From a virus: 64,000 bases of DNA. The position numbers were made by a program, and so were the translations under genes. Positions 1 to 18,763 of the stretch are shown piece after piece. Within the stretch, counting starts at the first letter, position 1, and each line of letters begins with the position of its first letter. Below the pieces are notes generated by a model. That model was not told where the DNA came from. It made no database searches and saw nothing but the letters and a program-made list of their open reading frames with translations. The stretch lies in the IMG/VR virus record IMGVR_UViG_3300017780_003691, positions 1 to 64,000 of that record, one strand, 5' to 3'.

Positions 1-800
1 AGGGAAGACCCGGCGCACCATGCCGGCAAAGGGGGCCCAGAGCGACCGGGCCTCCGCGTGCACCTGGCGCGCAACGCTGCACCCCATGCCCCGCAAGTCA
101 GACGCACATAGCCCATTAGTTGAGTCATCCCATTGCACCCCATGCCCTGCACCCTCACCCCTGCACCCCTCACCCTGCACCCCTGCACCCCTGCACCTGC
201 ACCCCCTCACCTGCACCCCCTCCCCATTCACCCCCTGTAGGGGATAGGCCCGACTCACCCCCTGTAGGGGCTAGGCCCTGCACCCCGGCGCCGATCAATC
301 CGGCCGCCCTGCCTCACCCTCCCGAGAATCCCCGCGCTAGGCCCTGCACCCCCTCCCGCATGTCTCACCCTTGGCGCCCTAGCCCCTGCACCCCGGCGCC
401 CATGGCTGACTGCAGTCAGGGTCTCACCCTCGCACCCCTGCACCTGCACCCCCTCCCATGGCGCCGCCCTCCCCATGGCAAGGCTAGGCCCTGCACCCCA
501 TGCCCTGCACCTGCACCCCCTCCGCTGCACCCCTTGCCAGGTCGACTAGCTAGCGCCTGGAGTCGATCAATTCAGGCCCTTGCCCCTGCACCCCATGCCA
601 TGCGCTGCACCCTCACCCCTGCACCCCTTGCGCGTGGCGCCGCCCTTGCACCCTATGACCTGCCTAACCCGCTCCCCCATAGGCCGCCCCTCCCCCAAGG
701 GGCAGGACTCGGGAGGGATAACTAGGCGCCCAAACCGGCTAGGCCCGCGCTTTCCCCGAGCGCGGGCCTTTCCCGTTTAAGCCCCTCCGCTGCACCCGTT
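1..800. repeat. C-rich degenerate tandem-repeat tract (units like CTGCACCCC / GGCCCTGCACCCC); candidate genome terminus or regulatory region
   Basis: Direct reading: dozens of CTGCACCC-like units, strong C/G strand asymmetry, CCCCTGTAGGGG element twice (229-246, 262-280), 14-bp palindrome CTGACTGCAGTCAG at 404-417. ORFs predicted here are proline-rich translations of the repeat. Confidence 0.6.
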
Positions 801-876
801 CGGACCTGGCAAAGAATCTTGCGGCAACTCAAAACTTTCTTGTGCTGTTAACTTGCCTTTAAGGGGTTAGGCCGTA

Positions 877-1095
877 GTGTCTTTTTATCAGCAACGGGAG
901 TCAGCCATGACTGTCAACTTTGACCGCAACGCCGCAGAATCGAACGCCAAACGCGCGCAAGACTCGTTTATCCGCTCGCAAGTTGCGGCGGAGTATCAGG
1001 CAAAGCGCAACGCCGCGAACATGCGCGCGGCCGTGCTTTCCGGTCTAGCCGTTGGCGTCATTGTCGCGGCGCTTCAATTGTTCGGAGTCATCTAG
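877..1095 (+). CDS. hypothetical small membrane protein (alternative start about 907)
   Basis: ORF with C-terminal hydrophobic segment; GGGAGTC RBS-like upstream of ATG 907. Confidence 0.3.
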   Translation: MSFYQQRESAMTVNFDRNAAESNAKRAQDSFIRSQVAAEYQAKRNAANMRAAVLSGLAVGVIVAALQLFGVI

Positions 1096-1233
1096 GCCCA
1101 TGATCCGGAGCTTTCTAACCCTCGCACAAGTTGCGGCGATTGTTCCGGCCGCCCTAGCCTGCCTTTCCCTTTTCTTCATGGTCCGCGCGTATGAGTCGAC
1201 CATTGGCAAACGTCACCCCAAGGAGTCCACGCA

Positions 1234-1428
1234 ATGAAAACGGCCGCCCTCAATTCCACGCTTCCCGAGTCCGAACGCCGCGCCATCCGTCGGGAGATTG
1301 CGCGCATATTCTCCCCCGTCGAGTCGCTGCTACTCGAGTCAATCAATGACGTGAGGGGCGCCCGTGGACTCCCGGCATTCGAGTCGCTGGCGCATGTCAG
1401 GGAGTCCGAATGCGACTCGCTAAACTAA
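1234..1428 (+). CDS. hypothetical protein
   Basis: ORF preceded by AGGAGTC RBS; no recognisable domain. Confidence 0.4.
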   Translation: MKTAALNSTLPESERRAIRREIARIFSPVESLLLESINDVRGARGLPAFESLAHVRESECDSLN

Positions 1429-1604
1429 TCATCCCGGCCGCGCTTTTTTGCGCCTGCCTTTACCTCATAACCCGCTAACAGGAGTCCAGCGTGCTTTTCC
1501 TCCGCCTATTCCTCCTCCCCATGGCGCCACTAGTCGCGCTTTCCCGCATTCAACGCACGCTTAAGCGCGGTTCGCGCTATCGCGGCCTATAGGAGTCGAC
1601 TCAA

Positions 1605-2069
1605 ATGTTTGTTGTTTTCTGGCGCATGACTGAGTCTAGCTCAATTGATCCGGGCGCCGATCAATTCGCCATCTATGAAACCGCGCAAGAGGCGGCCGAA
1701 AACTACGCGGGACTCGTTGCCCTGCCTAAATGCCATTGCGCGGGATGGGCGCCGATCACTGGCGCGGCAACGGAACCCCATTGGCTGCAATCGACTCCGG
1801 TTTCAGAGTTTGACGCCATGCGCGCGGAATATGAGTCCTTTATCATTTCCGGCGGATGGGCTGACGAGTCAGACGACGCAATGGGGATGCTTTACCGCAA
1901 TGACCTAACCCCGGCGGAGCGGCGTTGGCTTTCCGATTTTGTGCGGCGTTGGGATGACATGGAGTCACGCGCGGCAAGCGTTCGGCGCCTGCTAGAGAAT
2001 CCCCCTCACCCCATGACGGAGTCGCGCCGAGTCGCGCTTGTCATGCAACGCGACGCAATCGGCGCCTAG
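1605..2069 (+). CDS. hypothetical protein
   Basis: ORF preceded by TAGGAGTCGACTC RBS; no recognisable domain. Confidence 0.45.
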   Translation: MFVVFWRMTESSSIDPGADQFAIYETAQEAAENYAGLVALPKCHCAGWAPITGAATEPHWLQSTPVSEFDAMRAEYESFIISGGWADESDDAMGMLYRNDLTPAERRWLSDFVRRWDDMESRAASVRRLLENPPHPMTESRRVALVMQRDAIGA

Positions 2070-2099
2070 CGCCTGGAGTCTATCAGAGGAGAGTCGACC

Positions 2100-2294
2100 G
2101 TGATTTATATGGATTGCCTGACTCATGCCGTGCAAGTCAAACGGGCGCCTAAAACGCCATGGGAAACAATCGCCGCATTCGATCACCCCATAGCGGCCGG
2201 AAACTATGCGCGCGAATGCACGGCCGGGGCATTGCGATTCAAATATCGAGTCGTCAGCACGAAAACAGGCAAGGCCCTGAAACCGATTAGCTAG
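2100..2294 (+). CDS. hypothetical protein (GTG start)
   Basis: ORF after conserved intergenic element TAGCGCCTGGAGTC and GAGGAGAGTC RBS. Confidence 0.35.
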   Translation: MIYMDCLTHAVQVKRAPKTPWETIAAFDHPIAAGNYARECTAGALRFKYRVVSTKTGKALKPIS

Positions 2295-2333
2295 CCCCTG
2301 ACTGCAGTCAGCAACTCAAGAGGAGTTTAAGTT

Positions 2334-2519
2334 ATGCCCCAATTCTATACCCGCTCACAACGCGAACGACTCGCCGCGCGATACCGTCGAATCGCCGGGC
2401 GCCTATATGCCGATATGCACGCTGCAAAAGCGGCCGGGGAGTCCGCGCTATATGAGCGGATGCAATCCGCCCATGACTCCGCTTGCCGACTCTTCAATGC
2501 CCTAGAGTCGGGGGAGTGA
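2334..2519 (+). CDS. hypothetical protein
   Basis: ORF with AAGAGGAG RBS. Confidence 0.4.
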   Translation: MPQFYTRSQRERLAARYRRIAGRLYADMHAAKAAGESALYERMQSAHDSACRLFNALESGE

Positions 2520-2524
2520 ACGCC

Positions 2525-3139
2525 ATGCACTATTTTAGAATCCTAGTTGGCTTGCGCGGCTGCTATTCCGACTCAAGTGAGAATGAGATTCACGCTTGCG
2601 CCGATCCGGCCGCCTTGCGCGAGTCCATCAATGACCGGGCGTCATGGTATGCTGACTCAATCGAGGAATCAGAGGGGCCCGCATTCGACGAATGCACGCA
2701 AGCGGAGGCGGAGTCGATATTCGCGCTATACACGGGCCCCAAGGCGCCCGGCTTGCCTGTAGCGGCTGCTACGTGGCAAGGCGGGGCGATGGCTTGCCTT
2801 GTGAGCGGCGCCACTGAGTCCGAATATGCGGAGGGGCAACTAGTCGAGTCGGACTCGTTTGTCGCGGACTCTGGCAACGTCTATTTTTGGGCGCCTGCCT
2901 GCCTCACGCCATGGCTTGAATATGGGCCCGAGTCTGAAATGCCAGAGGGTGAGGCATTCGAGAATCAGGCTTGCGCATGGCATGACATCCCCCCGGCCGC
3001 GCGTCACAAGTTGCACCCCGTCAGCATGGAGTCGGGTGAGTCCAGCTTCATGAATCTGCACAATTTCCAAACGCCCGGCGGATTCACATATGCGGGCCCG
3101 GCGGCCGTTGTTTGTTTTATCCCCGGCTTGCCTGATTAG
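2525..3139 (+). CDS. hypothetical acidic protein
   Basis: ORF; internal ATG 2525 preceded by GGGGGAGTG RBS chosen over upstream ATG 2483. Confidence 0.4.
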   Translation: MHYFRILVGLRGCYSDSSENEIHACADPAALRESINDRASWYADSIEESEGPAFDECTQAEAESIFALYTGPKAPGLPVAAATWQGGAMACLVSGATESEYAEGQLVESDSFVADSGNVYFWAPACLTPWLEYGPESEMPEGEAFENQACAWHDIPPAARHKLHPVSMESGESSFMNLHNFQTPGGFTYAGPAAVVCFIPGLPD

Positions 3140-3156
3140 AATCCTGGAGTCTGAAA

Positions 3157-3671
3157 TGAAACACGCCAAACGAATGCCGAAACGCTTTCTTGAGGGGGCG
3201 CCGGATCATGTCGCGGATATATTCGACTCCCCTCAATTCGCGGATAGGTTCACGGTATTTTATCGCGACATAGCCGAGTCGCACGGCCGCCAATCAATCG
3301 GCTATCGCGGCATGAGTGAGAATCCGAGTCACCCGCAAGGAGTCGGCATGTTTGGCGAGATGGCGCCGCATGAGTTTAGCGCCTATCGCGAGTCCAATCG
3401 GCGCCGCCGGATCAAATGGGCGGACCTGCCCCCGGCCGTCAAGGCTTGCGTCATGCGCGACAAACCCGAGTCGGCGCGACTCGTTCGACTCACCCCTGAA
3501 ACATACGCGCGAGTCACCTATGCGCTATCGGATGCAAGCGACGCGCGGCGGAGTGAAAACGAATGCACGCGCAACGCTGAATTGCGGGCCTGCAACGACT
3601 CCGCAATCGCTGCAAACAATCGCGCGGCCGATGAACTGACGGCCGCATGGAACAAAGGCAAACCGGCTTAG
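3157..3671 (+). CDS. hypothetical protein
   Basis: ORF; ATG 3157 preceded by CTGGAGTC; upstream part of the ORF overlaps the previous gene. Confidence 0.4.
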
Positions 3672-3710
3672 GCAATCGCGCCAGGTCGCACAAAAGAGGA
3701 GACTCACGCT

Positions 3711-4046
3711 ATGGCCTATCAAGTAACCCCGGCCGCTATTTGGGATGCAATGCGAGCGGAGGGAATGCGAGCGGAGGCGGATGCATTCGCCCGGATCATG
3801 GAGTCCGAATTGCAGAAAGCGGCGGACCTGCTAGCCGCTAAAATCGGAATCGAGACCGGCCGCGCGTCAATGCAAGAGGAGGGATTCGCGGGCCTGCTTA
3901 TCCCGCTTTTCGCGGGGCATGAGGGGCAAGAGATTCCCGAATGCCTTGACGGGTGCGACACTGACTCCGAATGGCAAACGGCCGCCGCATGGCAAGGGGA
4001 GGTTGACTCCTTTCAACTGACGGGAAGCAATCCGACTCGCGCCTAG
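3711..4046 (+). CDS. hypothetical protein
   Basis: ORF with AAGAGGAGACTC RBS. Confidence 0.45.
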   Translation: MAYQVTPAAIWDAMRAEGMRAEADAFARIMESELQKAADLLAAKIGIETGRASMQEEGFAGLLIPLFAGHEGQEIPECLDGCDTDSEWQTAAAWQGEVDSFQLTGSNPTRA

Positions 4047-4081
4047 CGCCTGGAGTCAGCAACTCAAGAGGAGACTCGGTT

Positions 4082-4879
4082 ATGTATGAGACCAAAGCAC
4101 AAGCGGACAAGCGGCGCCGCGAATACCAAAGCGGCAACGCTCAAAACTACATGCGCGACAAACTGAAACGACTCCGCGCGCAATCTCCCGACGGATGGCG
4201 CGACCTGGCGCGGAAAGCGGCGGCCGATAAATACCGGCGCCCCATTGGCGGACCTAACGCCAAATTCGGCAAGCGCCAGAATCTGCAATGGCTGGAATAT
4301 GGACTCGACGCTTTCCGCCATGAATGGGCGGATAAATGCGAGGGAGTCCGAATCGATCACACGGGATGGTTTGACTCCGAATATCAGGAAGAAACATACC
4401 GGGGAATCGTTCTCGCCACGACTCGCGGAACCTTTCTAGCCGGTATGTGTCACGGCGCCGAGAGTCGCAAGCGCGGCGGATGGCAATCCGTTTGCGGCAA
4501 TGACTCGGCCGTCATTGTTGAAACCGGCTATAGCTATTCCACGCAAGCGGAGGCGGCAAGGGCGGCCGATCATATCGCCGAACATATGGCGGAGGCGGAG
4601 CGGGAATATAACGCGCAAGCGAACGCGGGAATCCAAGCCTCTGAATTGCGAGCGGAGATAAACGAGACCCGCGCGGAAACGCTCGCAAGCCTTGCGGAGT
4701 TGAGGCAGGCCCGCAAGGCGCTTGCCCGTGACTCCGCCGCATTCCCTCACCTATGCGAGCAACTGCGGAGGGATGCACGCGCGGCCGTTCGCGACATCAA
4801 ACGCAAGCGCGCAAAAATTGCGGAGCTAGTCGAGTCCTTTGGCGACTCGGCTGCATTCCGCGAACATTTCCCCGCCTAA
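4082..4879 (+). CDS. hypothetical protein
   Basis: ORF with AAGAGGAGACTC RBS preceded by conserved element. Confidence 0.5.
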   Translation: MYETKAQADKRRREYQSGNAQNYMRDKLKRLRAQSPDGWRDLARKAAADKYRRPIGGPNAKFGKRQNLQWLEYGLDAFRHEWADKCEGVRIDHTGWFDSEYQEETYRGIVLATTRGTFLAGMCHGAESRKRGGWQSVCGNDSAVIVETGYSYSTQAEAARAADHIAEHMAEAEREYNAQANAGIQASELRAEINETRAETLASLAELRQARKALARDSAAFPHLCEQLRRDARAAVRDIKRKRAKIAELVESFGDSAAFREHFPA

Positions 4880-4908
4880 CCTGTAACCCCTCAAGAGGAG
4901 ACTCTAGC

Positions 4909-5610
4909 ATGTCAACAATTAGTGACGTTCACCCGGAACCCAAACCCCGGCCGGATTATGAGTTAGCGCGGGAGGAGTTGGCGCAATTGATGCGCGACCA
5001 TGCGCTAAGAATCGACTCGGAATTTATCCCCTGGAGTCGTTCGCGCAATGCCCCCGGCCGCTATGATCCGGGCCCGCTATCGCCCGGCGCCAATTCAGCG
5101 GAGCGGAACAATCGGGCCCGCGCGTTGCGCAACGGATGGCGGAGTCTCAATTGGAAAGTGAGACTCGTTCGGACAACTGGCGCCCCTCACGCGACAATCA
5201 AACCCCGGCCGATATGGGAGTCCGAATACTCCGCCGGGGAAGCGCATTGCCCCGCCTATAAGGACAAGGGACTCGGCACAAGGGACTCGCATGATCGGTC
5301 AAACGCAATCGACTCCGAATGCGAGACCGGCCGAGTCTATCGCTTCTCACCCGGACTCGGCGGAGGCTATGCCACTGCTAAGCCGATCAATCCCGACTCG
5401 GTTGACGTATTCGCGTCAATCGTTCGCGACGCTCAAGACGCGCTTGACTCGGGAGGATTCGAGGAATGGGCGGAGAATCTAGGATATTCCAGCGACTCGC
5501 GACATGCGGAAAAGATATTCCGCGAATGCGTCGAGTCTGCCCTCAAGTTGACGGCCGGAATCGGCGCCGAAACGCTCCGCCGCGCGGCTGATATTGCGGG
5601 GCGCCTGTAA
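4909..5610 (+). CDS. hypothetical protein
   Basis: ORF; ATG 4909 with AAGAGGAGACTC RBS (upstream in-frame ATG 4753 unlikely). Confidence 0.45.
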   Translation: MSTISDVHPEPKPRPDYELAREELAQLMRDHALRIDSEFIPWSRSRNAPGRYDPGPLSPGANSAERNNRARALRNGWRSLNWKVRLVRTTGAPHATIKPRPIWESEYSAGEAHCPAYKDKGLGTRDSHDRSNAIDSECETGRVYRFSPGLGGGYATAKPINPDSVDVFASIVRDAQDALDSGGFEEWAENLGYSSDSRHAEKIFRECVESALKLTAGIGAETLRRAADIAGRL

Positions 5611-5894
5611 TGCCACAAATGCACCCGCTAGACGCATGGGAGCAATGCCGGCTCAACGGGATTCCGTTAGGGGCTGACTTTCATACGCTCGACTCTCGCA
5701 CCGTCGACTCCATCCTACGAGTCGCGGACCTGGTAAAATATCGCAAGCCAAAGCAGGCGCCCGGATCACGGGCCCGCATGTTCTACGCCTATCTAAATCG
5801 CAGGGCGGAGGCAGGGCATAAAGCGGCGATAGTTGCCGCGAAGCGCCTGGAGTCCGGGCGTTCACTCATAACAGGAAAGCGACTCACCAAATGA
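5610..5894 (+). CDS. hypothetical protein
   Basis: ORF, start overlaps previous stop (ATGA-type coupling). Confidence 0.4.
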   Translation: MPQMHPLDAWEQCRLNGIPLGADFHTLDSRTVDSILRVADLVKYRKPKQAPGSRARMFYAYLNRRAEAGHKAAIVAAKRLESGRSLITGKRLTK

Positions 5895-6148
5895 AACCGG
5901 CTAAGGTCAAGTTTTCAGTCTACAGATTCCGCGAGTCCGTTGCCGTGTATCTGGCAACGGAAGTTGACCCGACTCACACTGCGAACGGGAAAGCGGAGCG
6001 GCAAGCGGTGCAGGTCTATTTGACTCCGGCCGCCGCTCGCAAACTTACGCGCGCAATCAATGCAGCCGCGCGCAACGTGGAAACGATTCCCAAATTCAGC
6101 GAGTCCAACTTTCCGACTCGTTCGGGTGAATCAGCGGGGGAGGTCTAG
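5891..6148 (+). CDS. hypothetical protein
   Basis: ORF, overlapping stop-start coupling. Confidence 0.4.
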   Translation: MKPAKVKFSVYRFRESVAVYLATEVDPTHTANGKAERQAVQVYLTPAAARKLTRAINAAARNVETIPKFSESNFPTRSGESAGEV

Positions 6149-6151
6149 CGC

Positions 6152-6466
6152 ATGGCGCGCGTTGAACCCATGACTCCGGAGGCATTCGGCGCCGCGCTAG
6201 ACGCGGGCCCGTATGCATGGCCGGGAGGCTATCCGCAGTTTTTCGTTATGGCTGACGGGGAGTCGCTTAGCTTCCCGGCCGCCATTGCGGAGCGTGAACG
6301 GATCGACTCGGAACTACGCGACTCGACCTATGCCGACTCATCCTGGAGTCCGGTTGCGGTTGCCATCAATTGGGAAGACTCGACTCTCGTTTGTTGCCAC
6401 ACTGGCGCGCGGATTGAGTCGGCATATGCGGAGGACTCGGACCATGACGACTCAACAAACAATTGA
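6152..6466 (+). CDS. hypothetical acidic protein
   Basis: ORF; no recognisable domain. Confidence 0.4.
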   Translation: MARVEPMTPEAFGAALDAGPYAWPGGYPQFFVMADGESLSFPAAIAERERIDSELRDSTYADSSWSPVAVAINWEDSTLVCCHTGARIESAYAEDSDHDDSTNN

Positions 6467-7286
6467 CCCGGCCGTTACGCTTTGGCCGGGCCTGCCTTGC
6501 GCGCATGGGGCGCCAATGGGGCGCCGATCCGATACGCTCGCAAATGCGGAGGGGTGCGAGGTGCATCTATTCCGAATCCCCATGGTCGACTCCTGCTATG
6601 ATCCGGGGGGCGCCTATTGGGGAGCGGGAGACTCGGCCGTCGGGTTTATGTTCGCATGGTATGCACCCGAGTCCGACTCGCGCGGATACTTTCGAGCGGC
6701 TGACTTGACGGCCGCTAAAGCGCATATTGAAGCGGAGGCGCCCGGCTGCACCTTTGCGCATGGCGCGGACCTGGACTCGTTTGTCTCGGGATATTTTGAA
6801 GCGTTGTTTTTCACTGATAACGCTCCGCAAGTTTACCGGGATGAATGGCCGGAGGATGGCGAGACTCAAGAGGGGAGCATTCCCGACGGACTCGACGAGT
6901 CAGACATTGCGGAGGATTGCCGCGCAAAGGCAGTGAACGATTGCGCGGCATTCATGGCGGAGGCGGCGCCCCTGCTACGCGACGCCATGGCGCGCGGCTA
7001 TTCCTTCGAGCAAGGCGGCCGGGATTATTGGCTGACTCGGAATGGGCATGGAGTCGGATTCACGGATCGGCGCCAGCTTGAGTCGACGGGTGAGACCGAG
7101 TCCGAATATGAGCGGCTAACGGCCGCCATGGTCGCGGCCAATGCGAGCGGAGACTCCGCCGCATGGGGCAGGGCCCTAGCCGAACGGAAGGCCCTGCCTG
7201 CCTCACTAGGGGAGCAACTAGCCGCAATCGCTCGCAAGGCGGGGGAGGTCGACTCGTATTGGGATGGCGAGCGGGTGCGATTCTGA
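6444..7286 (+). CDS. hypothetical protein
   Basis: ORF; internal ATG 6444 taken as start of the 6213..7286 frame. Confidence 0.4.
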   Translation: MTTQQTIDPAVTLWPGLPCAHGAPMGRRSDTLANAEGCEVHLFRIPMVDSCYDPGGAYWGAGDSAVGFMFAWYAPESDSRGYFRAADLTAAKAHIEAEAPGCTFAHGADLDSFVSGYFEALFFTDNAPQVYRDEWPEDGETQEGSIPDGLDESDIAEDCRAKAVNDCAAFMAEAAPLLRDAMARGYSFEQGGRDYWLTRNGHGVGFTDRRQLESTGETESEYERLTAAMVAANASGDSAAWGRALAERKALPASLGEQLAAIARKAGEVDSYWDGERVRF

Positions 7287-7480
7287 ATCGCGCGGCGCCC
7301 GCGCTTTGGCTGCTATGTGCGGCCGGGTGCATGGTCGCGGCGCTTGCCTCTGGCGCCGCCATCCTATGGGCCCTTGCGAGCTACTGGCGCGAGTCCCTGC
7401 TATTCGCTTTCCTGTTTTGGCTGATATGCGCCAAGGGGAAAGGCTAGCGCCTGGAGTCGAATAGGAAGGCCCTAGAGAAG

Positions 7481-7520
7481 CGAGAACGGCCGCCGGGGTG
7501 ATCCGGCGGCCGTTTTCATT
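7481..7520. terminator. bidirectional rho-independent terminator between convergent genes
   Basis: Perfect 11-bp stem ACGGCCGCCGG / CCGGCGGCCGT with 6-nt loop followed by TTTTCATTT on the plus strand; lies between the plus-strand early block and the minus-strand M15 peptidase gene. Confidence 0.75.
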
Positions 7521-7540
7521 TGCGCGACCTGGCGCGGCTG

Positions 7541-7936
7541 CTAGACCGGGGCCGGGTATTGTTTCCAAGGCAGTTGCCAATGGGGCCCATCCTGAAATGT
7601 GCGCCAATCTCCGCCCCATTCAATCGGAACCCCTTCTAGCTTCGCGGCTGCTTTCATCCCGGCCGCGATTCGATGCATGATAGGCCAAGAATAATCCGGC
7701 CGCCCTGCAATCCATCCGCATACGTCAAACGCATGGCCGGTTAGATGGCGACTCTTGAGCGTCTTACTTGCCCCGGCTGCTTTCAACTCGCGTTGCCGCT
7801 CTAAGGTCCGGAGTCCTTCCGTGACTCGAATATCAACGGCGCCCGTTTGCGCCATGTAACGAGTCACGACTCGGACTAGGTCCGGATGCACCCCGGCCAA
7901 CTTCGCGCGGGATGACTTGCCCAAAACAAACGCCAT
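7541..7936 (-). CDS. peptidase M15 family (L-alanyl-D-glutamate / D-Ala-D-Ala carboxypeptidase-like) endolysin
   Basis: Translation contains the SxHLxGxAxD zinc-binding region and DGPHWQL second His motif typical of peptidase M15 (VanY-like) phage endolysins. Confidence 0.8.
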   Translation of the reverse strand: MAFVLGKSSRAKLAGVHPDLVRVVTRYMAQTGAVDIRVTEGLRTLERQRELKAAGASKTLKSRHLTGHAFDVCGWIAGRPDYSWPIMHRIAAGMKAAAKLEGVPIEWGGDWRTFQDGPHWQLPWKQYPAPV

Positions 7937-8085
7937 TGCAGGACTCCGAATAGGGGCGCCGCTACGTCATGACGCCAGGTTATGCTCAGCCCGAGCATAT
8001 GGGGGTGGGTGCGTGCGTGCGCCCAGGTGCGCGTGCGCGCGTGCATACACTACGGGAATGACTCGTGTAGTGCAACGACCCGGCC

Positions 8086-8200
8086 GGCGGCCAGGAATTT
8101 AGCAGGGTCAGCCCGTTCCGTCGGGAATTTTGCGGGGTCAGCCGGTCCCACGCAGTTTCGCCGGCCCGCCGAGAATTTTGCAGGGTCAGCCTGTCCCGAG
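8086..8200. promoter_or_regulatory. three direct repeats GAATTT(T)GCRGGGTCAGCC in a divergent intergenic region
   Basis: Copies at about 8086, 8124 and 8170 spaced about 40 bp apart; upstream 24-nt perfectly alternating purine-pyrimidine tract (8034-8057); TTGACT -35-like at about 8222. Confidence 0.4.
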
Positions 8201-8257
8201 CAAAATATCAAGTCAGACCCCGCTTGACTTGCAGATCGGCCGTCGGCATAAACGGCC

Positions 8258-8453
8258 AATGGGAAAACCAGTGACCCACTATGCCTATGTCCGGAAGGGA
8301 CTGTTCGGTTCGGACACCACGATCACGGGCTCTGCCTGCGGTCGTGAGACGGGCCTCGAAGTCGGTATCAACTCCGACGACGATCTCGACAAGGTGACGT
8401 GCAAGCTGTGCCTCAAGCACCCGAGATACCTCAAAGCAAAGGCCGCCAAATGA
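8258..8453 (+). CDS. hypothetical small Cys-containing protein
   Basis: ATG 8258 inside the 8130..8453 ORF, downstream of the repeat region; C..C and CxxC spacing. Confidence 0.35.
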
Positions 8454-8884
8454 ACACCCCGATCCTGCCGACCAAGCGTGAACTCGACCAGCGCGACTTC
8501 TTCATGCGCCGTCACGACAACAACATGGCTCACGCTTCGCCGGCCCTGCTCTGCACCGTCGATCCGAACATGCCGCCGCCGGTCATCATCAACTCCATCA
8601 AGACGATGGACAACCTCATGGTCGGCCTCGGCCCTCGCATGATGCTGCTGATGATGGCAGACACCGCCATGGGGCTGATGGCGAATGCTCCGCCGGCAGA
8701 CAAGCAGACCGTCGAGATCGAACTCGGCTCCTGGAACCGCGCGCTCTACATGCTCGCCAACCATCCGACGAAGTATCTGGAGATGGCGCAGGAGTTCGAG
8801 TTGATGCGGCAGGTCGCGGCTCGCGACAACCCGGAGACGGCCGGCACGACGGTTGCAGTGAAACCCGCAAATTCGGAATCGTGA
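8450..8884 (+). CDS. hypothetical protein
   Basis: ORF (ATG 8450 overlapping previous stop); Met-rich, no domain recognised. Confidence 0.45.
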   Translation: MNTPILPTKRELDQRDFFMRRHDNNMAHASPALLCTVDPNMPPPVIINSIKTMDNLMVGLGPRMMLLMMADTAMGLMANAPPADKQTVEIELGSWNRALYMLANHPTKYLEMAQEFELMRQVAARDNPETAGTTVAVKPANSES

Positions 8885-9995: not shown

Positions 9996-10225
9996 ATCCG
10001 CGCTGGGGCTTTCGCATTTGGCTCGGCCTGATGGTCGGAGCGATCATCATGGGAGGCTGCGCGTCGCCGCCCAAATACAACTGCGAGTATTGGACACAGT
10101 TCGAGCCTGACATGCAGGCGAAAAGAGAGTATTGCTTCCCCGACTGCCCGTCCTGCGGCCCTGTGATCCGCAGCAGAAACCCCTACGAAGGATTGAAGCG
10201 TGATGTCGAGCCACAAGGAACTTGA
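9992..10225 (+). CDS. small putative lipoprotein, Cys-rich
   Basis: N-terminal hydrophobic segment ending in a loose lipobox-like IMGGC; six Cys in 77 aa. Confidence 0.4.
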   Translation: MNPRWGFRIWLGLMVGAIIMGGCASPPKYNCEYWTQFEPDMQAKREYCFPDCPSCGPVIRSRNPYEGLKRDVEPQGT

Positions 10226-10409
10226 CTGGATCATCGAGCGGGCGCCCATCACCAAGGCGATACGTCGGGCGCAAGACCTCTCGATCAACTTCTACTACCT
10301 CGCCGACACAGGCATGTCCGAACTCATGGATGCCTGCCACAGCGTCTTCTACGCGGCCCTGGTGGACGTGGACACGAAGCACTACGGCTGCGTGCAGGAA
10401 CTCGCATGA
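10200..10409 (+). CDS. hypothetical protein
   Basis: ORF. Confidence 0.3.
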   Translation: MMSSHKELDWIIERAPITKAIRRAQDLSINFYYLADTGMSELMDACHSVFYAALVDVDTKHYGCVQELA

Positions 10410-10615
10410 GCTACGCCGCACAAGTCCGCAGCATGAACGCGCACGAGCGTTTCCAACTCGTGAACGCGCTGCTCGCGATCTCCATCCAGCGGCACGGGCC
10501 TCTGTTGCTGACGCCGGCTGAAATCTGCCTCGAACTCATGGGCGGTCACGACGAGAAGCTGTTCGTGCGCGACCTGCCCGATGGCAGCTTCTCGGTGGAG
10601 GTTCGCCCGCTATGA
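10406..10615 (+). CDS. hypothetical protein
   Basis: ORF, coupled stop-start. Confidence 0.3.
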   Translation: MSYAAQVRSMNAHERFQLVNALLAISIQRHGPLLLTPAEICLELMGGHDEKLFVRDLPDGSFSVEVRPL

Positions 10616-10851
10616 TCGACGATGACGCTCTGATGCGTGAGTTCCGAATCCTGGTCTCGAAGACAGACCGCATCCGTAAAGAGGGGCGCCGCACAGGCAA
10701 GTACCCCTCCGAATACCATGACATGTTGGGCCGTCTCCAGGATGTCAGGCGTGAAGCGCAGAAACGGAAACTCATCGAGAGTTCGCGGGGCGAGACTTTT
10801 AGCCCTCGCAATTCTCCGACCTTCAACCCGGTGCGTGGACTGAGGCACTGA
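10612..10851 (+). CDS. hypothetical protein
   Basis: ORF, coupled stop-start. Confidence 0.3.
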   Translation: MIDDDALMREFRILVSKTDRIRKEGRRTGKYPSEYHDMLGRLQDVRREAQKRKLIESSRGETFSPRNSPTFNPVRGLRH

Positions 10852-11672
10852 TGAAACGCCGCGACCAGATCACCCACAAAATCCTCCAACGCTCGCACCT
10901 CGAAGATCGCGGCTATCGCGACCCCGAGACGGGCGAGAAGTCGCTGTGCCGCATCTGGGATGGGCCCACCAGCGGCAGCGAGGACAAGACCAGGGGCCAC
11001 GGCTACGGCCGCATGAACCTCGATGGCGCGACTGTTGCAGTTCACATCGCCGCGTGGGTCAACGAGAACGGCCTGATCCCGCCACGAAAACAACTTGACC
11101 ATTTGTGCCGTCAACGAGACTGCTGCGAGGAGCGACACTTGAAGCTGAAGACGCACAAGCAGAACCAGCGCAACAAGGCGCCGAAGGCCGCGCCCCCGCC
11201 CGAGCACTACATCACTCGGATTTTGCGGCTTTACCCCGGCATCGGGGCGGGCAAGCTGAAGATGATCCATGACCAATGGCCTCCTGAGATGATTGAGCGC
11301 GCGGTTCTCGACTGCCCTGTTGGGTTCTTTGCCCACTACCTCAACTCGATGAAGGGCATCGCCTGCGGCCAAGACATCGAAAACGAATTGCGCGCCAAGC
11401 TGAAACGCGCCGATTACGTTCGCAGCACGCACCCCCTCGAACTCGAACAGCCGAAGCCCCGCATTGTCGCGCCCTATGACGCGATCCTGTGCCCCGGCAT
11501 CGACGGAAACGGCTGTGACTATTGCGGCCCCATCGGCTCGGGCCTCCCACCGCCGCCCACTACCATCGTAATGAGCCGGCAGATGTTTGAGCACATCTCA
11601 GGCGCAATAATCGGCCACGACATCCCTGCGGAGCGCCTGCCTCCGCCTGCACCCGAGGTAACTGACGAATGA
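10851..11672 (+). CDS. HNH endonuclease
   Basis: CRIWDGPT...GYGRMNLDG...HIAAW...DHLCRQRDCCEERHL matches the HNH_3-type His-Asn-His nuclease core. Confidence 0.75.
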   Translation: MKRRDQITHKILQRSHLEDRGYRDPETGEKSLCRIWDGPTSGSEDKTRGHGYGRMNLDGATVAVHIAAWVNENGLIPPRKQLDHLCRQRDCCEERHLKLKTHKQNQRNKAPKAAPPPEHYITRILRLYPGIGAGKLKMIHDQWPPEMIERAVLDCPVGFFAHYLNSMKGIACGQDIENELRAKLKRADYVRSTHPLELEQPKPRIVAPYDAILCPGIDGNGCDYCGPIGSGLPPPPTTIVMSRQMFEHISGAIIGHDIPAERLPPPAPEVTDE

Positions 11673-12451
11673 CATCTGCACCGAAGATCGGCGTCTACGC
11701 CATCATGCGCGACGAGGCCGCCAACGTGGATGCGTGGGTCGACTCCGTCCACATCGCAGACCATGTGATCGTGCTCGACACCGGATCGAAGGACGGCACG
11801 CCGCGCAAGCTCGACCAGGCGATGATGCGAGAAGGCGTGAGGCGCTTTCAGATCGCCGAGGGCCATGTGCAGCCGTGGCGCTTCGACGTGGCCCACAACG
11901 CCGCGCTGGCCCTGATGCCTGCCGACATCGACATCTGCGTGCCCCTGGCCGCCGACGAACGCCTCAACAAGGACTGGTACGACTGCATACAGGACGCGGT
12001 GATCCCGACCGGCCCGATCACGCACCCCACGAAGTTCACTTACCGCTATCAGTTTGCGCCGGGCATGAGCTTCAACCACGACCGCATTCACTCGCGCGAC
12101 GGCTTCCACTGGCGCTATCCCTTCCACGAAGGCGTCTACCCCTATGGCGAGGCGCCAGAGAAGCGCATTCACGTGCCAGCCCTGAAGATCACGCAGACGC
12201 AGAACGCCGCCGTGGATCGCGGCAAGCGCGACCTGGTGCTCGCGGAGATGGCGCTCAAGGAATTTCCGCACGATCCGCGCATGACCTTCTACGCCGGCCG
12301 GCAGTTCATGTATGCGGGCGACATCGACCGCGCGCTGATCCTGCTCCACAAATACTTCCATGTGGCGCGGGCCGCAGGGCACAACCACCCGGTCGAGGCG
12401 CAGTGGTGCGCCGAGGCCATCGCCGAGTGCTACAGAAGGAAAGCGGGCTGA
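11669..12451 (+). CDS. glycosyltransferase family 2-like protein (GT-A fold) with helical C-terminal domain
   Basis: N-terminal IGVYAIMRDEA...VIVLDTGSKDGT resembles the GT2 nucleotide-sugar binding region. Confidence 0.55.
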   Translation: MTSAPKIGVYAIMRDEAANVDAWVDSVHIADHVIVLDTGSKDGTPRKLDQAMMREGVRRFQIAEGHVQPWRFDVAHNAALALMPADIDICVPLAADERLNKDWYDCIQDAVIPTGPITHPTKFTYRYQFAPGMSFNHDRIHSRDGFHWRYPFHEGVYPYGEAPEKRIHVPALKITQTQNAAVDRGKRDLVLAEMALKEFPHDPRMTFYAGRQFMYAGDIDRALILLHKYFHVARAAGHNHPVEAQWCAEAIAECYRRKAG

Positions 12452-12834
12452 TGTTCGACTGGATCGCAATCGGCTTCGGAGCGTCCCTCGGGGTGTTCCT
12501 ATTCGTGGTCGCCCTGATCTTCGCAGTGCTCGTGCTCTGCGTGATCGGTGGCCTGATCTTCTGGAGCGTGGCGAAACTTCACAAGCATAACGACGGGGTC
12601 GCGATGCGGTGGGACTCCATCGAGCGCCAGGCGGAGGAGCGTTGGGGGGAGATCGACCGAGCAAACCGTCGACTCCTGCGTGAAGCACAGATCGTGCGTC
12701 TCAGGCCCTTGCTCACACCGATAAAGCCGATGAGCAAGCAACACCGCGACCTATACTACGGTGATCCGGACGAAAATCTGCGCCTGCACTTCCCTGGCGC
12801 CAACATCAAGAAGGGCGGGTTTTACAGGCCATGA
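12450..12834 (+). CDS. hypothetical membrane protein
   Basis: ATG 12450 opens the credible C-terminal part of the 11734..12834 frame; long hydrophobic helix at the N-terminus. Confidence 0.4.
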
Positions 12835-13037
12835 GAGTCGAGTTCTTCAACGTCTCGAAGAAGCACCTTTGGACCGGCGATGTCGGCTTCCCGATCCCAC
12901 GGATCGGCGAGACCATCACCTTCTCGCAACCCGAGGGCAGCGGCTTCCCGAACCGCGTGATCCACGTCCACTACGTCGCCGTGAACGGCATCGGCCGATC
13001 CTACGTCGAGGTCTTTGTCAATGAGGAAGGCTCATGA
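12831..13037 (+). CDS. hypothetical protein
   Basis: ORF. Confidence 0.35.
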   Translation: MRVEFFNVSKKHLWTGDVGFPIPRIGETITFSQPEGSGFPNRVIHVHYVAVNGIGRSYVEVFVNEEGS

Positions 13038-13360
13038 GAATCGCAACCAAGCTCGGCCTCGCGGAGTGGCTGGAGAAGGAAGCCGCCGACAGTGAGCGGT
13101 TCCTGCGCAACGCACCCTACTGCTCACCGCAGCAGAGAGCCCGCTTCCTCGCCAACATCTACAACAACCGCGTGGCTGCCTTCGCGATCCGTCGGCTCGA
13201 AACTGAGCAGGAGATCGAGATGCTGGAGTGGCAGGCGGGCGGCCAGGCAAACGGCGATGAGCCAGGTCCGATCACGATCCTGCGGCCGGAACCCCCGCCT
13301 CCACAGAAGAAGCGGTCGTGGCTCGACAACTTCCGCGATCCGCTCGGAGTCTATGCCTGA
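13034..13360 (+). CDS. hypothetical protein
   Basis: ORF. Confidence 0.4.
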   Translation: MRIATKLGLAEWLEKEAADSERFLRNAPYCSPQQRARFLANIYNNRVAAFAIRRLETEQEIEMLEWQAGGQANGDEPGPITILRPEPPPPQKKRSWLDNFRDPLGVYA

Positions 13361-13599
13361 TGCCATATCGTCCATTGAAGGGTCGCCCAACTCCGAAAGA
13401 GTTGCGGCTCGCGGTCGATTGGCTGCGCAAGAACGATGTCGAGGACGAATCCGGTATCGCGTGCCAGAAGGCCGCGAACCTGCTCAAGGGCCTTGCGGGG
13501 CACGATGAGCGGAAGATGGAGCTTCACACGATTGGTCTCGACAGCCCCGAACTCCGAGATATGCTCGCTGCGCTGGATTCTGAGGGCCTTCTGCCCTAG
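13360..13599 (+). CDS. hypothetical protein
   Basis: ATG 13360 within the 13318..13599 frame. Confidence 0.35.
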   Translation: MPYRPLKGRPTPKELRLAVDWLRKNDVEDESGIACQKAANLLKGLAGHDERKMELHTIGLDSPELRDMLAALDSEGLLP

Positions 13600-13673
13600 T
13601 GGGGATTTTCAACCTTTTTCGACCCGCAGAAAATTATTGACGATTTGACGATGAAACCGAGTTTTGGAACCTA

Positions 13674-14066
13674 ATGGCGGCCCGTTCAAAAACACCGAAG
13701 CTCGACGCTGCCGTGGCCTGGCTCGCACAGGCGAAGAAGGGCGAGCGCATGGAGGTCTGGCGCGGCCACCTCGACCGTGCGTGCGCGACCCCGGAATCAA
13801 ACATGAGCAACGCGCAGCGGCGGGCGCACCAGGCGGCCTCGCGCAAGGCCCGCAAGCTCGGCAAGCCGCGACCCGATCCGCCCGATCCATACGCCAAGGT
13901 GCGAGACGAGGCACGGCTCATGATCGAGTGGCTTGAACGCAACGAGCTTCGCGGCCTCATCGAGATCAAGATCACAGTGATGGATGCGAAGCAGCACGAC
14001 CGCATCTACGAAGTCGAGTGCGCAGTGCAGCGCAATGGCCTGGCAGCAGTGCGAGCGCGCAGGTGA
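13674..14066 (+). CDS. hypothetical basic protein
   Basis: ORF. Confidence 0.4.
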   Translation: MAARSKTPKLDAAVAWLAQAKKGERMEVWRGHLDRACATPESNMSNAQRRAHQAASRKARKLGKPRPDPPDPYAKVRDEARLMIEWLERNELRGLIEIKITVMDAKQHDRIYEVECAVQRNGLAAVRARR

Positions 14067-14941
14067 GCGGCGCATACTACAACGAGTTCGATCCCTTCGC
14101 GGCCGAGTGGCTGCGCAACCTCATCAAGGCGGGTGAGATCGCGCCAGGCGATGTCGACTCACGCAACCTCTGGGACGTGACGCCAGACGATCTCAAGGGC
14201 TACACCCAAGTTCATCTCTGCGCCGGCATCGGCATCTGGAGCAGGGCTCTACGCGAAGAAGGAATCCCCGATGACCTCCCACTCTGGAGCGCCAGCTTCC
14301 CTTGCCAGCCTTTCAGCACGGCAGGCAAAAAACTTGGGTTTGCTGACGAGCGGCACCTATGGCCCGCCGGGCTGCACCTCATTCGCGAGCGACTGCCTGA
14401 CCGCATCATTGGCGAACAGACTTCGAGCCTACGTGGACTCGCTTGGATGGAGCTTGTTCAAGCTGACCTGGAGGCAGCGACGTATGCCGTCGGGCGCGTT
14501 GATACCTGCGCTGCGGGCTTCGGTAAGACCCCCGGCCGAGCGTACCATTGGCGTCACCGAATCTACTGGTGTGGAGATCGCCGGGTGGACCTCCCCGCAG
14601 GCGTCCGACTCACACGGCGCAGGCATGAACCAGAACACGGCGTCGCTGTGCCAGCAGACCCGAGCGATGCTCGCGGGGTGGGCCACACCGACAGCGAGCG
14701 ACGGCTCCGGTGGGAGGACTACCAAGACGAAGGGCGGTGGCTCGGTGTTCCTGGACAAGCAGGCTCGGGAGTTGACCTCGTTGCCTGCGTCGATGGCGCC
14801 TGGCGGCCGGTTGAACGCGGCTCATTCCCGCTGGGTCATGAGGATACCGCGCGTGTGGGACGACTGCGTGCCTACGGCAACGCGCTCGACCTCGAACAAG
14901 CCAAAGGCTTCGTCAAAGCGTGGAAAGAGGCCGTCCTCTAG
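14018..14941 (+). CDS. DNA (cytosine-5)-methyltransferase, reading frame apparently disrupted by two compensating frameshifts
   Basis: Frame A carries motif IV FPCQPFSTAG and the C-terminal RAYGNAL motif; the central part (FGKTPAERTIGV, GWTSPQASD, GWATPTASDGSGG, RWVMRIPRVWDD) reads in the alternative frame listed as ORF 14271..14966; switch points at C5 run 14529-14533 and near 14865. Confidence 0.6.
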   Translation: MRSAAQWPGSSASAQVSGAYYNEFDPFAAEWLRNLIKAGEIAPGDVDSRNLWDVTPDDLKGYTQVHLCAGIGIWSRALREEGIPDDLPLWSASFPCQPFSTAGKKLGFADERHLWPAGLHLIRERLPDRIIGEQTSSLRGLAWMELVQADLEAATYAVGRVDTCAAGFGKTPGRAYHWRHRIYWCGDRRVDLPAGVRLTRRRHEPEHGVAVPADPSDARGVGHTDSERRLRWEDYQDEGRWLGVPGQAGSGVDLVACVDGAWRPVERGSFPLGHEDTARVGRLRAYGNALDLEQAKGFVKAWKEAVL

Positions 14942-14990
14942 CAATTTGGACCGTATTCTGGGATAGGTAGCCGGCAGCAGGGAGTCGGCC

Positions 14991-15698
14991 ATGCCTGGAC
15001 CTTTCACATTCGGAAACATGGGCGGCGGTGGAGGCGGTGGCGGTGGCGGTGGCCCGGTCGCCGCTTCGAGCGTCACCGTGACGAATGACGGATACTCGAA
15101 CGCGCAGGAAATCTTCGACGATCTCCTCTACGTTCCGCTCTCGATCTCCAGCTTCACAGGCGGCAGCACGGTCGAGATCGGCAGCACCGTGAACACGGTC
15201 AACCTCGCCTGGTCCTACAACAAGGACGTGACGGCGCAAGAGATCAACCAGAGCATCGGCTCTCTCGATCCGGCCGACCGCACCTACAACATCACGAGCC
15301 TCGGTCTCACCACGAACAGGACGTGGACCCTCTCGGCCACCGACGGCACGACTCCGGACACCGCCAACACGAGCGTCACGTTCCTCCCGAAGAGGTACTG
15401 GGGTGTGTGGGTCGATGACAATCCGGACAACACCGACATCCTCACGCTCTCCAACGAACTCACCACCAGCCGCGCCAAGTCGATCACCTATGACTGCACA
15501 GGCGGGCGCTATCCGATCTACGCCTGGCCGAAGAACCTCGGCGCGCTGACCGGGGTGACAGTTGGTGGTCTCGCGTTCTCGGCATACACCGTGAGCGAGA
15601 TGAGCTTCACCAATGCTCAAGGCTACACGCAGGACTACTACGTCTTCGTGTTCAATGGCATCCAGACAGGGGCGGCGATCAACGTCGTGTTCTCATGA
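14991..15698 (+). CDS. virion structural protein with a 12-residue poly-Gly tract
   Basis: S/T/N-rich composition typical of fibre or adhesin proteins; immediately upstream of the collagen-like fibre gene; (GGY)n DNA repeat 15018-15056. Confidence 0.5.
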
Positions 15699-18600: not shown

Positions 18601-18754
18601 GCAATGCACCGGCTGCGGCTTCTGCTTCGCCGTGCAGCAGGGCCTCGCGATCTTCGGCGACACGACCAACGACCGCGCGACGTTCCGCTTCCTCGCCAAC
18701 GATGCATCGAACCGCGAGTTCTTCTTCACCTTCCAATACCAAATCCGCCCGTAG
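15695..18754 (+). CDS. tail fibre protein with collagen-like GXY repeats and C-terminal BNR/Asp-box repeats
   Basis: Many G-A/P-T triplet runs interleaved with five copies of a conserved roughly 50-aa module (W.G.W....Y..D.V...[24 protein letters not shown]); C-terminal S/T-x-D-G-x-T-W repeats (at least 5) typical of beta-propeller BNR domains. Confidence 0.8.
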
Positions 18755-18763
18755 GAGATCAGC

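Follow-up and report, generated by a model that had tools for sequence, protein, structure and literature searches.

A dense island of GANTC sites over the early genes of a metagenomic phage points to a possible epigenetically marked early domain

Introduction

What keeps a single five-base word at high density over the early genes of a phage? This question is raised by IMG/VR record IMGVR_UViG_3300017780_003691, a 69.7-kb metagenomic contig of which we analyzed 64 kb, further called the window. Its early genes lie in an island of GANTC sites. In alphaproteobacteria GANTC is the target of the cell-cycle methyltransferase CcrM and, once methylated, is bound by GcrA. An earlier inspection of the letters, further called the sequence-only reading, had noticed an excess of GAGTC and GACTC in the early block. 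It had proposed that the phage exploits the CcrM and GcrA circuit of its host for the timing of early transcription or, alternatively, that the sites serve a phage methyltransferase of the MT-A70 type or a type IIS or nicking enzyme.

We use GASTC for GAGTC and GACTC (S, G or C in the centre) and GAWTC for GAATC and GATTC (W, A or T in the centre). Compared contigs and records carry L-numbers. The comparison with L004 concerns part of a syntenic 68.6-kb contig, L003 is a near-identical contig, and V16 (L089) is Ruegeria phage vB_RpoS-V16. Several of the relatives share ancestry, and agreement between them is therefore not fully independent evidence.

Results

GANTC sites form an island over the early genes

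The island was delimited by maximum-likelihood boundaries, a Poisson test and k-mer scans. Gene calls within it were based on open reading frames, ribosome-binding sites and the signal of low G+C content at second codon positions (GC2), and they agreed with the calls on L003 and L004.

881-8061, both strands: GANTC island with 130 GAGTC/GACTC and 32 GAATC/GATTC
907-7286, plus strand: early block of ~16 small, mostly orphan genes, with PHROG hits of unknown function
907-1095, 1100-1237, 1234-1428, 1491-1592, 1605-2069, 2100-2294, 2334-2519 and 2525-3139, plus strand: early genes 1-8
3156-3671, 3711-4046, 4082-4879, 4909-5610, 5610-5894, 5891-6148, 6152-6466 and 6444-7286, plus strand: early genes 9-16

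We observed 130 GASTC in 881-8061 (18.1/kb), while 16.8 were expected from the rate outside (Poisson log10 p = -67.7). The other 56.8 kb of the window hold 133 GASTC, that is 2.34/kb or approximately 1 per 430 bp, which matches the expectation from composition. When every central base was allowed, the island contained 162-164 GANTC against 22.2 expected (log10 p = -82), an excess of approximately 8 times over chance, and it contributed 162 of the 335 GANTC sites of the whole window. The sites follow each other at a mean distance of 44.5 bp (about 45-55), the largest gap is 213 bp, and 11% of the island bases fall within a site. Spacing was slightly more regular than random (coefficient of variation 0.84). 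We found no periodicity of sites in the island, helical or other, beyond the codon period.

The sequence-only reading had counted by eye 8 GAGTC/GACTC in 1201-1440 and none in 53400-53640. Both counts were exact (the eight sites are at 1223, 1267, 1321, 1336, 1367, 1381, 1402 and 1414), and its expectation of one site per 400-500 bp agrees with the background given above. It had placed the enrichment at 850-7460. Enrichment is indeed present there, but the right end was set too short, as the maximum-likelihood island runs from 881 to 8061.

GASTC was the top locally enriched pentamer of the entire window (z = 21). It was also the sole extreme word when the expectation was taken from the composition of the block itself (z = 37 for an order-1 and z = 16 for an order-2 Markov model). 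A/T-rich words (CAATT, GCAAT, CTAG, ATAT) were enriched relative to the late region and unexceptional under the block's own composition. The information outside the five bases did not exceed 0.16 bit per position, which describes a bare pentamer. We also considered a family of dispersed repeats or regulatory elements with a longer motif and rejected it; only ~4 sites lie within the recurrent intergenic element CTAGCGCCTGGAGTC. Elsewhere in the window, 31060-31750 contains 8 GAGTC in the same orientation. They belong to a motif (..GAGTTxGAGTC..) that encodes a repeated peptide of a tail gene on the minus strand, and they are unrelated to the island.

Selection acts on double-stranded DNA

The simplest account of such an excess would be that it has no function and is a by-product of composition, codon usage, proteins rich in acidic residues and serine, or recent horizontal acquisition. 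The block does have a composition of its own. Its G+C content at third codon positions (GC3) is 0.65 against 0.8 or more elsewhere, CTA serves for 26% of Leu codons against 2%, and GTT for 36% of Val codons against 9%. The same shift in GC3 was seen in L004 (0.67 in 650-7900, 0.78 outside) and in V16 (0.69 in 1-8200, 0.84 outside). However, GC3 was still low in codons without any overlap with a site (0.64), and therefore low GC3 is not the cause of the sites. Early proteins are also rich in Glu-Ser and Asp-Ser, as the sequence-only reading had remarked. In the early proteins these two exceed expectation by far more than any other dipeptide (41 vs 11.3 and 35 vs 8.2 expected, respectively), at 20 and 17 per 1000 residues compared with 2.8 and 4.2 in late proteins.

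The enrichment persisted under controls which preserve composition, codons and proteins. Permutation of synonymous codons within genes gave 54.5 +/- 4.0 GASTC and recoding with late-gene codon usage gave 45 +/- 4.3, while 111 were observed. By codon frame (1, 2, 3) there were 72, 22 and 17 GASTC, compared with 10.6, 2.2 and 2.2 after shuffling of the amino-acid order. Non-coding DNA of the island holds 20 GASTC against 2.5 expected, and strictly intergenic DNA of the early block has 11 sites in 331 nt. Enrichment was thus 7-10x in each codon frame and in non-coding DNA alike. Sites had been reported in ribosome-binding regions (AGGAGTC, GAGGAGACTC) and in intergenic elements, and we found them in both. 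The sequence-only reading had also named k-mer counting against a Markov expectation as its own check, and a loss of enrichment after correction for codon and dipeptide usage as a refutation; the enrichment survived every one of these controls.

Codon choice at single dipeptides was directed to the site. Among the 76 Glu/Asp-Ser dipeptides of early proteins, 72 are encoded as GAG/GAC+TCN. At Arg/Gly-Ile/Phe the rare xGA codon was used in 16 of 27 cases (59%), all of which create GAWTC, vs 12% before other residues (p = 1e-7). At Arg/Gly-Val/Leu it was used in 22 of 39 cases (56%). The xGA use in late genes was 3%, 9% and 9%. We observed the same preference in L004 (37% and 54% vs a 9% baseline; p = 3e-4 for the GAWTC test) and in V16 (26% and 18% vs a 4% baseline; p = 1e-4).

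The two orientations of the site, GAGTC and GACTC, occur 62 and 68 times in the island, although almost all of its genes lie on one strand. The only gene of opposite direction is equally dense:

7541-7936, minus strand: convergent gene encoding a Peptidase_M15_4 protein (Pfam PF13539, E = 3.5e-9), inside the island, with sites at island density; sites run over 7750-8060

These two observations exclude a signal at the level of RNA. Since the convergent gene, whose arrangement is the same in L004, carries the island density, the island is a domain of DNA and not one transcript. We conclude that the target of selection is the double-stranded DNA and neither RNA nor protein. The density of sites has reshaped the dipeptides and the codon choice of the early proteins, and it is kept although it makes proteins and codons less optimal.

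The selected word is GANTC with a preference for G or C in the centre

Where Glu/Asp-Ser leaves the centre free, we observed 72 GAS compared with 3 GAA and no GAT, so that GAT-TC occurs in none of the 35 Asp-Ser pairs. Elsewhere in the early block GAA and GAT make up ~44% of Glu/Asp codons. The non-coding sites have 20 S centres vs 1 W, and S is the centre in 80% of all island sites. The S fraction was 0.79-0.90 in the window, L004 and L009 vs 0.60 expected from composition, while in phage S-ESS1 it was 0.61 vs 0.64 expected. The observed-to-expected ratios (O/E) of S- and W-centred sites in the islands were 8.3 and 3.1 in the window, and 3.2 and 3.7 in S-ESS1.

Sites with any central base, the target set of a CcrM-type enzyme, are therefore enriched despite the strong preference for S at free centres. 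GAWTC is selected where the amino acid fixes the centre, and S is favoured where it is not fixed. Selection is thus on GANTC, and the strong preference for an S centre is specific to the lineage. This implies that a writer or reader of the sites would have a preference for the central base, as some CcrM homologues do. Homologues with altered central-base specificity, GAWTC or GADTC, have been described (PMC8919816), which makes a lineage-specific preference plausible for this class of enzymes.

In the remaining part of the window (8300-64000) GAWTC was depleted (O/E 0.47-0.57), while GASTC was neutral (0.92-1.09). Depletion of GAWTC with neutral GASTC has been reported for hosts that have a GAWTC-specific CcrM homologue (Hiraoka et al. 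2022; PMC8919816). The depletion outside the island may thus be a clue to the host.

The island is maintained across diverged phages

The orthologues in L004 share ~76% nucleotide identity with those of the window. We detected 15-21 GASTC/kb over the first 7.5 kb of L004 and 0-3/kb after. When the sites in orthologues were compared, 55% were unchanged, 5% had undergone a G<->C flip, 3% had turned W-centred and 37% were lost; at conserved positions there were 6 G<->C flips and 4 changes to W. Non-homologous genes that occupy the same slots in the two phages contain 14 and 14 sites. Because sites turn over and unrelated replacement genes hold equal density, what is maintained is the density and not the position.

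V16 has 65 GASTC in its first 8 kb vs 1.5/kb elsewhere. Weaker islands (3-4x composition) were identified in V16, at the right end of S-ESS1, in a prophage of a Shimia metagenome-assembled genome and in several IMG/VR relatives. Rhizobium phage RHph_X2_30 showed only a two-fold rise. No island was found in Loktanella phage pCB2051-A, nor in the betaproteobacterial phage AchV4, in which GASTC is scarce. Outside the islands GANTC was neutral or mildly avoided (O/E 0.5-1.1), the reverse of its status within them. This agrees with the scarcity of the motif, by a factor of more than 2, in the genomes of alphaproteobacteria (PMC8919816).

The island is thus maintained across diverged phages. Its persistence at ~76% nucleotide identity despite turnover of sites, and in unrelated replacement genes, adds to the codon, frame and non-coding tests. 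Together they refute a functionless by-product, to which we give practically no credence.

Other dense words found in relatives are a different phenomenon. TCGAG in L039 is a tandem repeat and GCGTTAC in RHph_X2_30 is a short intergenic array. In relatives lacking strong islands we noted 1-kb non-coding clusters of GTTAA/TTAAC or GCGTTAC near early genes (L005 3000-4000, L026 2000-3000, L027 7000-8000, L057 2000-3000 and L001 1-5000), which may be arrays for CtrA-type or other regulators. The right genome end of Loktanella phage pCB2051-A (L162, 56500-56620) has tandem repeats built on the 12-bp palindrome GAGTCATGACTC, with two GANTC each, of operator- or iteron-like appearance.

The sites are unlikely targets for cleavage or recombination

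GAGTC is the recognition site of type IIS and nicking enzymes (PleI, MlyI, Nt.BstNBI), and GAGTC/GACTC are 80% of the island sites. The island could therefore be a target of cleavage or nicking by such an enzyme or by a HinfI-like nuclease, as the sequence-only reading had offered in part. An HNH endonuclease is encoded at 10851-11672, and there is a weak bias of orientation, with GAGTC in the left half and GACTC in the right (p = 0.003). This polarity was also seen in L004, with which the window shares ancestry. However, it is absent in V16 and follows the use of Glu-Ser vs Asp-Ser by individual genes, and the overall ratio of orientations is nearly even. V16 does not share the HNH gene. Moreover, GAWTC, which a GAGTC enzyme ignores, is selected too, and G<->C flips are tolerated at conserved positions. 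Sites cut in both strands each 45 bp would shred the domain, and phages normally lose restriction sites, so that the enrichment is opposite to the effect of restriction pressure. We consider cleavage or nicking very improbable, and its form with a GAGTC-only enzyme is largely refuted by the co-selection of GAWTC and by the irrelevance of orientation. Chi-like recombination hotspots were rejected as well. They need one orientation, while both are equally frequent here and the site class is closed under reverse complement.

Borders and architecture of the island

The island begins behind a repeat-rich leader and ends at a second set of repeats:

70-700, no strand: short-repeat array of ~30 CTGCACCC(C)-type copies, G+C content ~0.70, non-coding, ~630 bp; outside the island, marks its left border
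742-775, plus strand: hairpin resembling a terminator, GGCCCGCGCT...AGCGCGGGCC and then TTTCCCGTTT, immediately before the early leader
823-906, plus strand: conserved leader and putative early promoter region, GCAACTCAAAACTTTCTTG..TGTTA.CTTG ... TATCAGCAACGG, from the alignment with L004
550-564, 2066-2080 (plus strand), 4043-4057 and 7444-7458: recurrent 15-nt intercistronic element CTAGCGCCTGGAGTC (TAG + site), in which TAG is the stop of the preceding gene in three copies
7484-7520, no strand: hairpin terminator GGCCGCCGG..CCGGCGGCC with a T-run, separating the early block from the convergent gene
8094-8113, 8124-8143 and 8172-8191, plus strand: three direct repeats GGAATTT(T/A)GC(A/G)GGGTCAGCC at the right border, read from the sequence
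8224-8252, plus strand: TTGACT-N17-CATAAA element leading into the next gene set, an inferred promoter, absent from the output of the consensus scanner

The first island site, at 898, is within a ribosome-binding region. The last one is at 8060, and 8061-8875 contains no GANTC. The island is thus bounded, covers the early genes and ends at defined borders. The stem at 742-775 is preserved in L004 by different bases (GGCCGCCCC...GGGGCGGCC). The end of the L004 contig carries the same array architecture as 70-700, while the V16 record opens with different tandem repeats (CCCGACAGCGCSCCACACGGCACGAGGCAG); the array could be a packaging, terminus or origin element. The stretch 8094-8252 looks, by its repeats and promoter-like element, like an activator- or repressor-controlled promoter for the middle genes. 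At 7483-7523 the Rfam family ctRNA_p42d scored below threshold (32.9 bits vs a gathering score of 50).

At 848-862, ~45 nt before the first early gene, there is a perfect TTAA-N7-TTAA, which has the form of a CtrA box. Control of alphaproteobacterial phage genes by CtrA has been proposed (PMC9437464). In L004 this form is absent (TTAT-N7-TTTA), and because of this lack of conservation a role as a CtrA box is doubtful. Another recurring sequence, CTCAAGAGGAGACTC, supplies three genes with their ribosome-binding region (near 3701, 4073 and 4900). Both CTAGCGCCTGGAGTC and CTCAAGAGGAGACTC may be module-boundary or processing elements.

The last early gene (6444-7286) is the only island gene common to the window and V16, and its family comprises more than 400 IMG/VR loci over many host phyla. 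The predicted structure of its product is confident (pLDDT 87.5) and matches uncharacterised phage proteins; no match of the fold was found among solved structures. A scan of IMG/VR with the product of 4082-4879 alone gave no match.

This architecture would suit an array that works independently of methylation, in which a protein of host or phage that binds double-stranded DNA at GA(S>W)TC would coat the early domain as a shield against silencers or against nucleases, whether of the host or induced by the phage, for compaction or as a ratchet of DNA entry. Spacing is even and gap-free, the borders are sharp and lie beside the terminal repeat array, and a symmetric site class with tolerated G<->C flips suits a dimeric binder, for which a central-base preference is natural. 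The phage also has homologues of proteins of T5-type degradation of host DNA ('DNA transfer protein' phrog_1745 and deoxynucleoside monophosphate (dNMP) phosphatase), against which it may have to protect its own DNA. On the other side, it would be a coincidence that an unrelated binder uses the methylation motif of alphaproteobacteria. Further, among the island genes only that of a P0001-family protein is common to all island-bearing phages, and this family is widespread without islands and has no recognisable DNA-binding fold. Such an array is, in our opinion, unlikely.

The phage and its likely host

The window encodes a lambda-type terminase, a portal protein and a module of S49 protease and capsid E (Pfam). 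Its large terminase subunit (TerL) is 54% identical to that of RHph_X2_30 and 53% to that of the Ruegeria DSS3-P1 / vB_RpoS-V16 group. All of these phages are placed in Casjensviridae, and the window is syntenic with V16 and RHph_X2_30. By its predicted TerL, portal, S49 protease and capsid E genes the phage is therefore a Chi-like siphovirus (Casjensviridae). Comparison with GenBank phages by megablast gave no useful relative at the DNA level. Genes lie on the plus strand from ~900 to 28,000; structural and replication genes are on the minus strand from 28,800 on.

23914-24234, plus strand: gene of a GapR-like DNA-binding protein (Pfam PF10073, E = 8.9e-11), outside the island

The GapR-like gene had already been recognized in the sequence-only reading. 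The nearest cultured relatives infect Sinorhizobium and Ruegeria, and islands were also seen in contigs of Shimia and Mesorhizobium. Together with the GapR-like gene this makes an alphaproteobacterial host likely.

Candidate writers and readers of the sites

If the motif acts through methylation, a writer and a reader are needed. One candidate writer is encoded by the phage:

25782-26450, plus strand: MT-A70 N6-adenine methyltransferase with a DPPW motif (Pfam PF05063, E = 2.6e-23; PHROG 359), candidate writer

The gene and its family are as the sequence-only reading had given them. Relatives in PDB are METTL3 and MTA1, eukaryotic enzymes that form N6-methyladenine (m6A). The closest phage homologue is that of S-ESS1 (44.5% identity), itself a bearer of an island. 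We found no relation of the window enzyme to phiLM21_p027, for which methylation of GANTC has been shown experimentally in a work that also documents convergent phage GANTC enzymes (Decewicz et al. 2017, PMC5537653). V16 has no MT-A70; in that slot, adjoining the dNMP phosphatase gene, it has a CcrM-like N6_N4 enzyme. RHph_X2_30 encodes a homologue of phiLM21_p027 (30% identity, E = 6e-18) and a GcrA-like protein (PF07750, E = 2e-13). Each island-bearing phage thus has some N6-adenine methyltransferase. In Sinorhizobium phage phiLM21 itself (L164), 10000-30000 contains 4 GASTC (~40 expected) and 17 GAWTC, the opposite of the island.

As for the reader, GcrA recognises GANTC in its methylated form, and its footprint on fully methylated DNA exceeds 40 nt (PMC3667746). 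It accompanies RNA polymerase-sigma70, and its Caulobacter consensus is TGATTCG / YGAKTCK (PMC4647560). Its intragenic sites number in the hundreds, and in Brevundimonas a prophage-like operon depends on it (PMC7987155). We did not observe an extended site of the GcrA type near -35/-10, as the centre is S in 80% and the flanks are weak (C at -1, S at +5), the consensus compared being that of Caulobacter, which may not be that of the host.

Which explanation fits best

The explanation we put first is that of a 7.2-kb island of methylation sites which acts through the state of N6-adenine methylation and a reader, and which marks the early domain of the infecting genome. We hold it tentatively; it may well be right, though we stop short of calling it probable. 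Virion DNA would be methylated by the phage adenine methyltransferase and/or by host CcrM, so that the early domain would enter the cell densely marked. A reader of methylation, for which host GcrA is the obvious candidate, would then distinguish the early domain on the infecting molecule. It might either draw polymerase to the early genes, or keep them active only until replication dilutes the mark, which would be an epigenetic switch from early to late.

In a further reading, which is possible but rather doubtful, the island would be a tag that tells the infecting, fully methylated genome from its replicated copies; GcrA with RNA polymerase, or another m6A reader, would load the domain, so that host polymerase would be captured for the early genes on entry, and replication would erase the mark and switch the domain off. 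One methylated GANTC per ~45 bp matches the footprint of GcrA of more than 40 nt. The central-base preference would co-evolve with the methyltransferase or reader of each host lineage, and the tag would be the counterpart of a CpG island in a bacterial virus.

Several points weigh against methylation with a reader. The S>W preference is opposite to the top site of Caulobacter GcrA, TGATTCG, and CcrM does not predict it either. GcrA control of the promoter type needs one site per promoter, not 160 through coding sequence. No GcrA-like or CcrM-like genes were found in the window. No phage methyltransferase is common to the island-bearing phages, so one shared phage enzyme was rejected as writer. 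The Loktanella phage carries the CcrM-like enzyme of the V16 type yet has no island, and the MT-A70 family is also common in gammaproteobacterial phages. Further, among prophage-type loci of the probe gene the alphaproteobacterial group was not significantly richer than others (p = 0.21).

The original proposal concerning CcrM and GcrA thus holds in part. Selection of GANTC at the DNA level, the likely alphaproteobacterial host and the precedent of phage GcrA support it, while the preference for S centres and the intragenic density are unlike Caulobacter GcrA. The alternative that the sites serve the MT-A70 enzyme does not hold in the form proposed: a phage methyltransferase of this kind is neither necessary nor sufficient, as judged from V16, which bears an island and no MT-A70, and from the Loktanella phage.

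The same cell-cycle factors could be the object of a sponge or decoy, aimed at host CcrM, GcrA or a GANTC-directed restriction enzyme, which once amplified would derail the cell cycle or protect the genome. GANTC is the target of essential cell-cycle factors, and a stalled cell cycle has been suggested as the effect of the GcrA homologue of PhiCbK (PMC7987155). With the island the phage has about twice as many GANTC sites as it would have without it. With a GAWTC-specific host CcrM, S-centred sites would be near-cognate and poorly methylated, and the late region fits this (O/E 0.5 for GAWTC and ~1.0 for GASTC). However, a two-fold gain of sites is weak, and W-centred sites are selected too. 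A sponge has no need for early genes, sharp borders or a cost to proteins, since a non-coding array would be cheaper. We regard it as decidedly unlikely.

Other genes of the window

Besides the genes already mentioned, the window encodes a C5-methyltransferase, MazG, a protein with a dATP/dGTP-diphosphohydrolase-type domain and a dCMP deaminase. Genes of nucleotide metabolism and of host-takeover type are clustered at 19971-27159 (MazG, the protein with the dATP/dGTP diphosphohydrolase N-domain, phrog_1745 of 624 aa, dCMP deaminase and dNMP phosphatase), and two glycosyltransferase-like genes are present at 11669-12451 and 28802-29533. These genes hint at degradation of host DNA and possibly at modified bases. 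The C5-cytosine methyltransferase gene is seemingly split over two frames (14018-14941 and 14271-14966), while its L004 orthologue is a single open reading frame of 291 aa; the split at 14018-14966 may be a frameshift or a pseudogene. At 15695-18754, on the plus strand, a protein of 1019 aa with collagen triple-helix repeats and CBM_5_12 modules is encoded. Its gene is one of the middle genes and stands apart from the tail module; the product probably acts as a fibre or in host recognition. Scans of the window for tRNA and Rfam families gave nothing relevant.

Discussion

The island resembles the CcrM/GcrA module in its motif and in its likely host class, and relatives of the phage carry GcrA-like genes and GANTC-type methyltransferases. 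It differs in that GANTC is avoided within the genes of host genomes, where single sites close to promoters are used, while the island has 160 in 7 kb, mostly within codons. Also, GcrA and CcrM of Caulobacter do not have the G/C centre preference of the island.

Clusters of Dam GATC sites are known sensors of methylation state, as in the sequestration of oriC by SeqA and at the pac site of phage P1. There, too, a methylation motif is in local excess and a methylation state changed by replication controls a DNA transaction, and P1 gives a precedent in a phage. Dam clusters are short and non-coding, with 7-11 sites in 160-250 bp, whereas the island extends over 7.2 kb of coding DNA with dipeptide and codon usage rewritten.

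Enzymes of the phiLM21_p027 type demonstrate that phages of these hosts invest in writing the GANTC mark, and differing methyltransferase families share one slot in the window and V16. The work on phiLM21_p027 concerns enzymes, not a site-dense target domain, and the MT-A70 of the window is unrelated to it.

The early domain of T7 and the pre-early domain of T5 are the first DNA to enter the cell and carry genes for host takeover. The island likewise lies in a terminal block of ~10% of the genome. Its small orphan genes follow a non-coding leader rich in repeats, and terminators and regulatory repeats set them apart from the next gene set. Homologues of the T5 'DNA transfer protein' and dNMP phosphatase are present in the window phage, but outside the island. 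We know of no short-word island in T5 or T7.

In full-text literature searches we found no published description of phage domains dense in GANTC or GAGTC; depletion of GANTC has been reported in some pelagiphages (PMC9516812). Clusters of methylation motifs that act as sensors are already known, and what is unusual in the island is its scale, its coding location and its imprint on proteins. The results point to an undescribed island of early genes in phages that may be epigenetically marked.

If methylation is indeed the means, the island would be the first regulatory domain of a phage to be set not by promoters or operators but by how densely a methylation motif occurs across kilobases of coding sequence. 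Protein sequence would here be overridden by selection on DNA, in a way seldom seen so cleanly, with two dipeptides raised 4-fold and rare codons used on purpose. The explanation is directly testable, since a cultured island-bearing relative exists (vB_RpoS-V16 / DSS3-P1 on Ruegeria pomeroyi DSS-3). Scans of local motif density could flag early or host-takeover modules in genomes of uncultured phages and hint at their hosts. In summary, the timing of early genes in these phages would be linked to the CcrM/GcrA/CtrA cell-cycle circuitry of alphaproteobacteria, which would offer an explanation for the repeated invention of GANTC methyltransferases by phages of these hosts.

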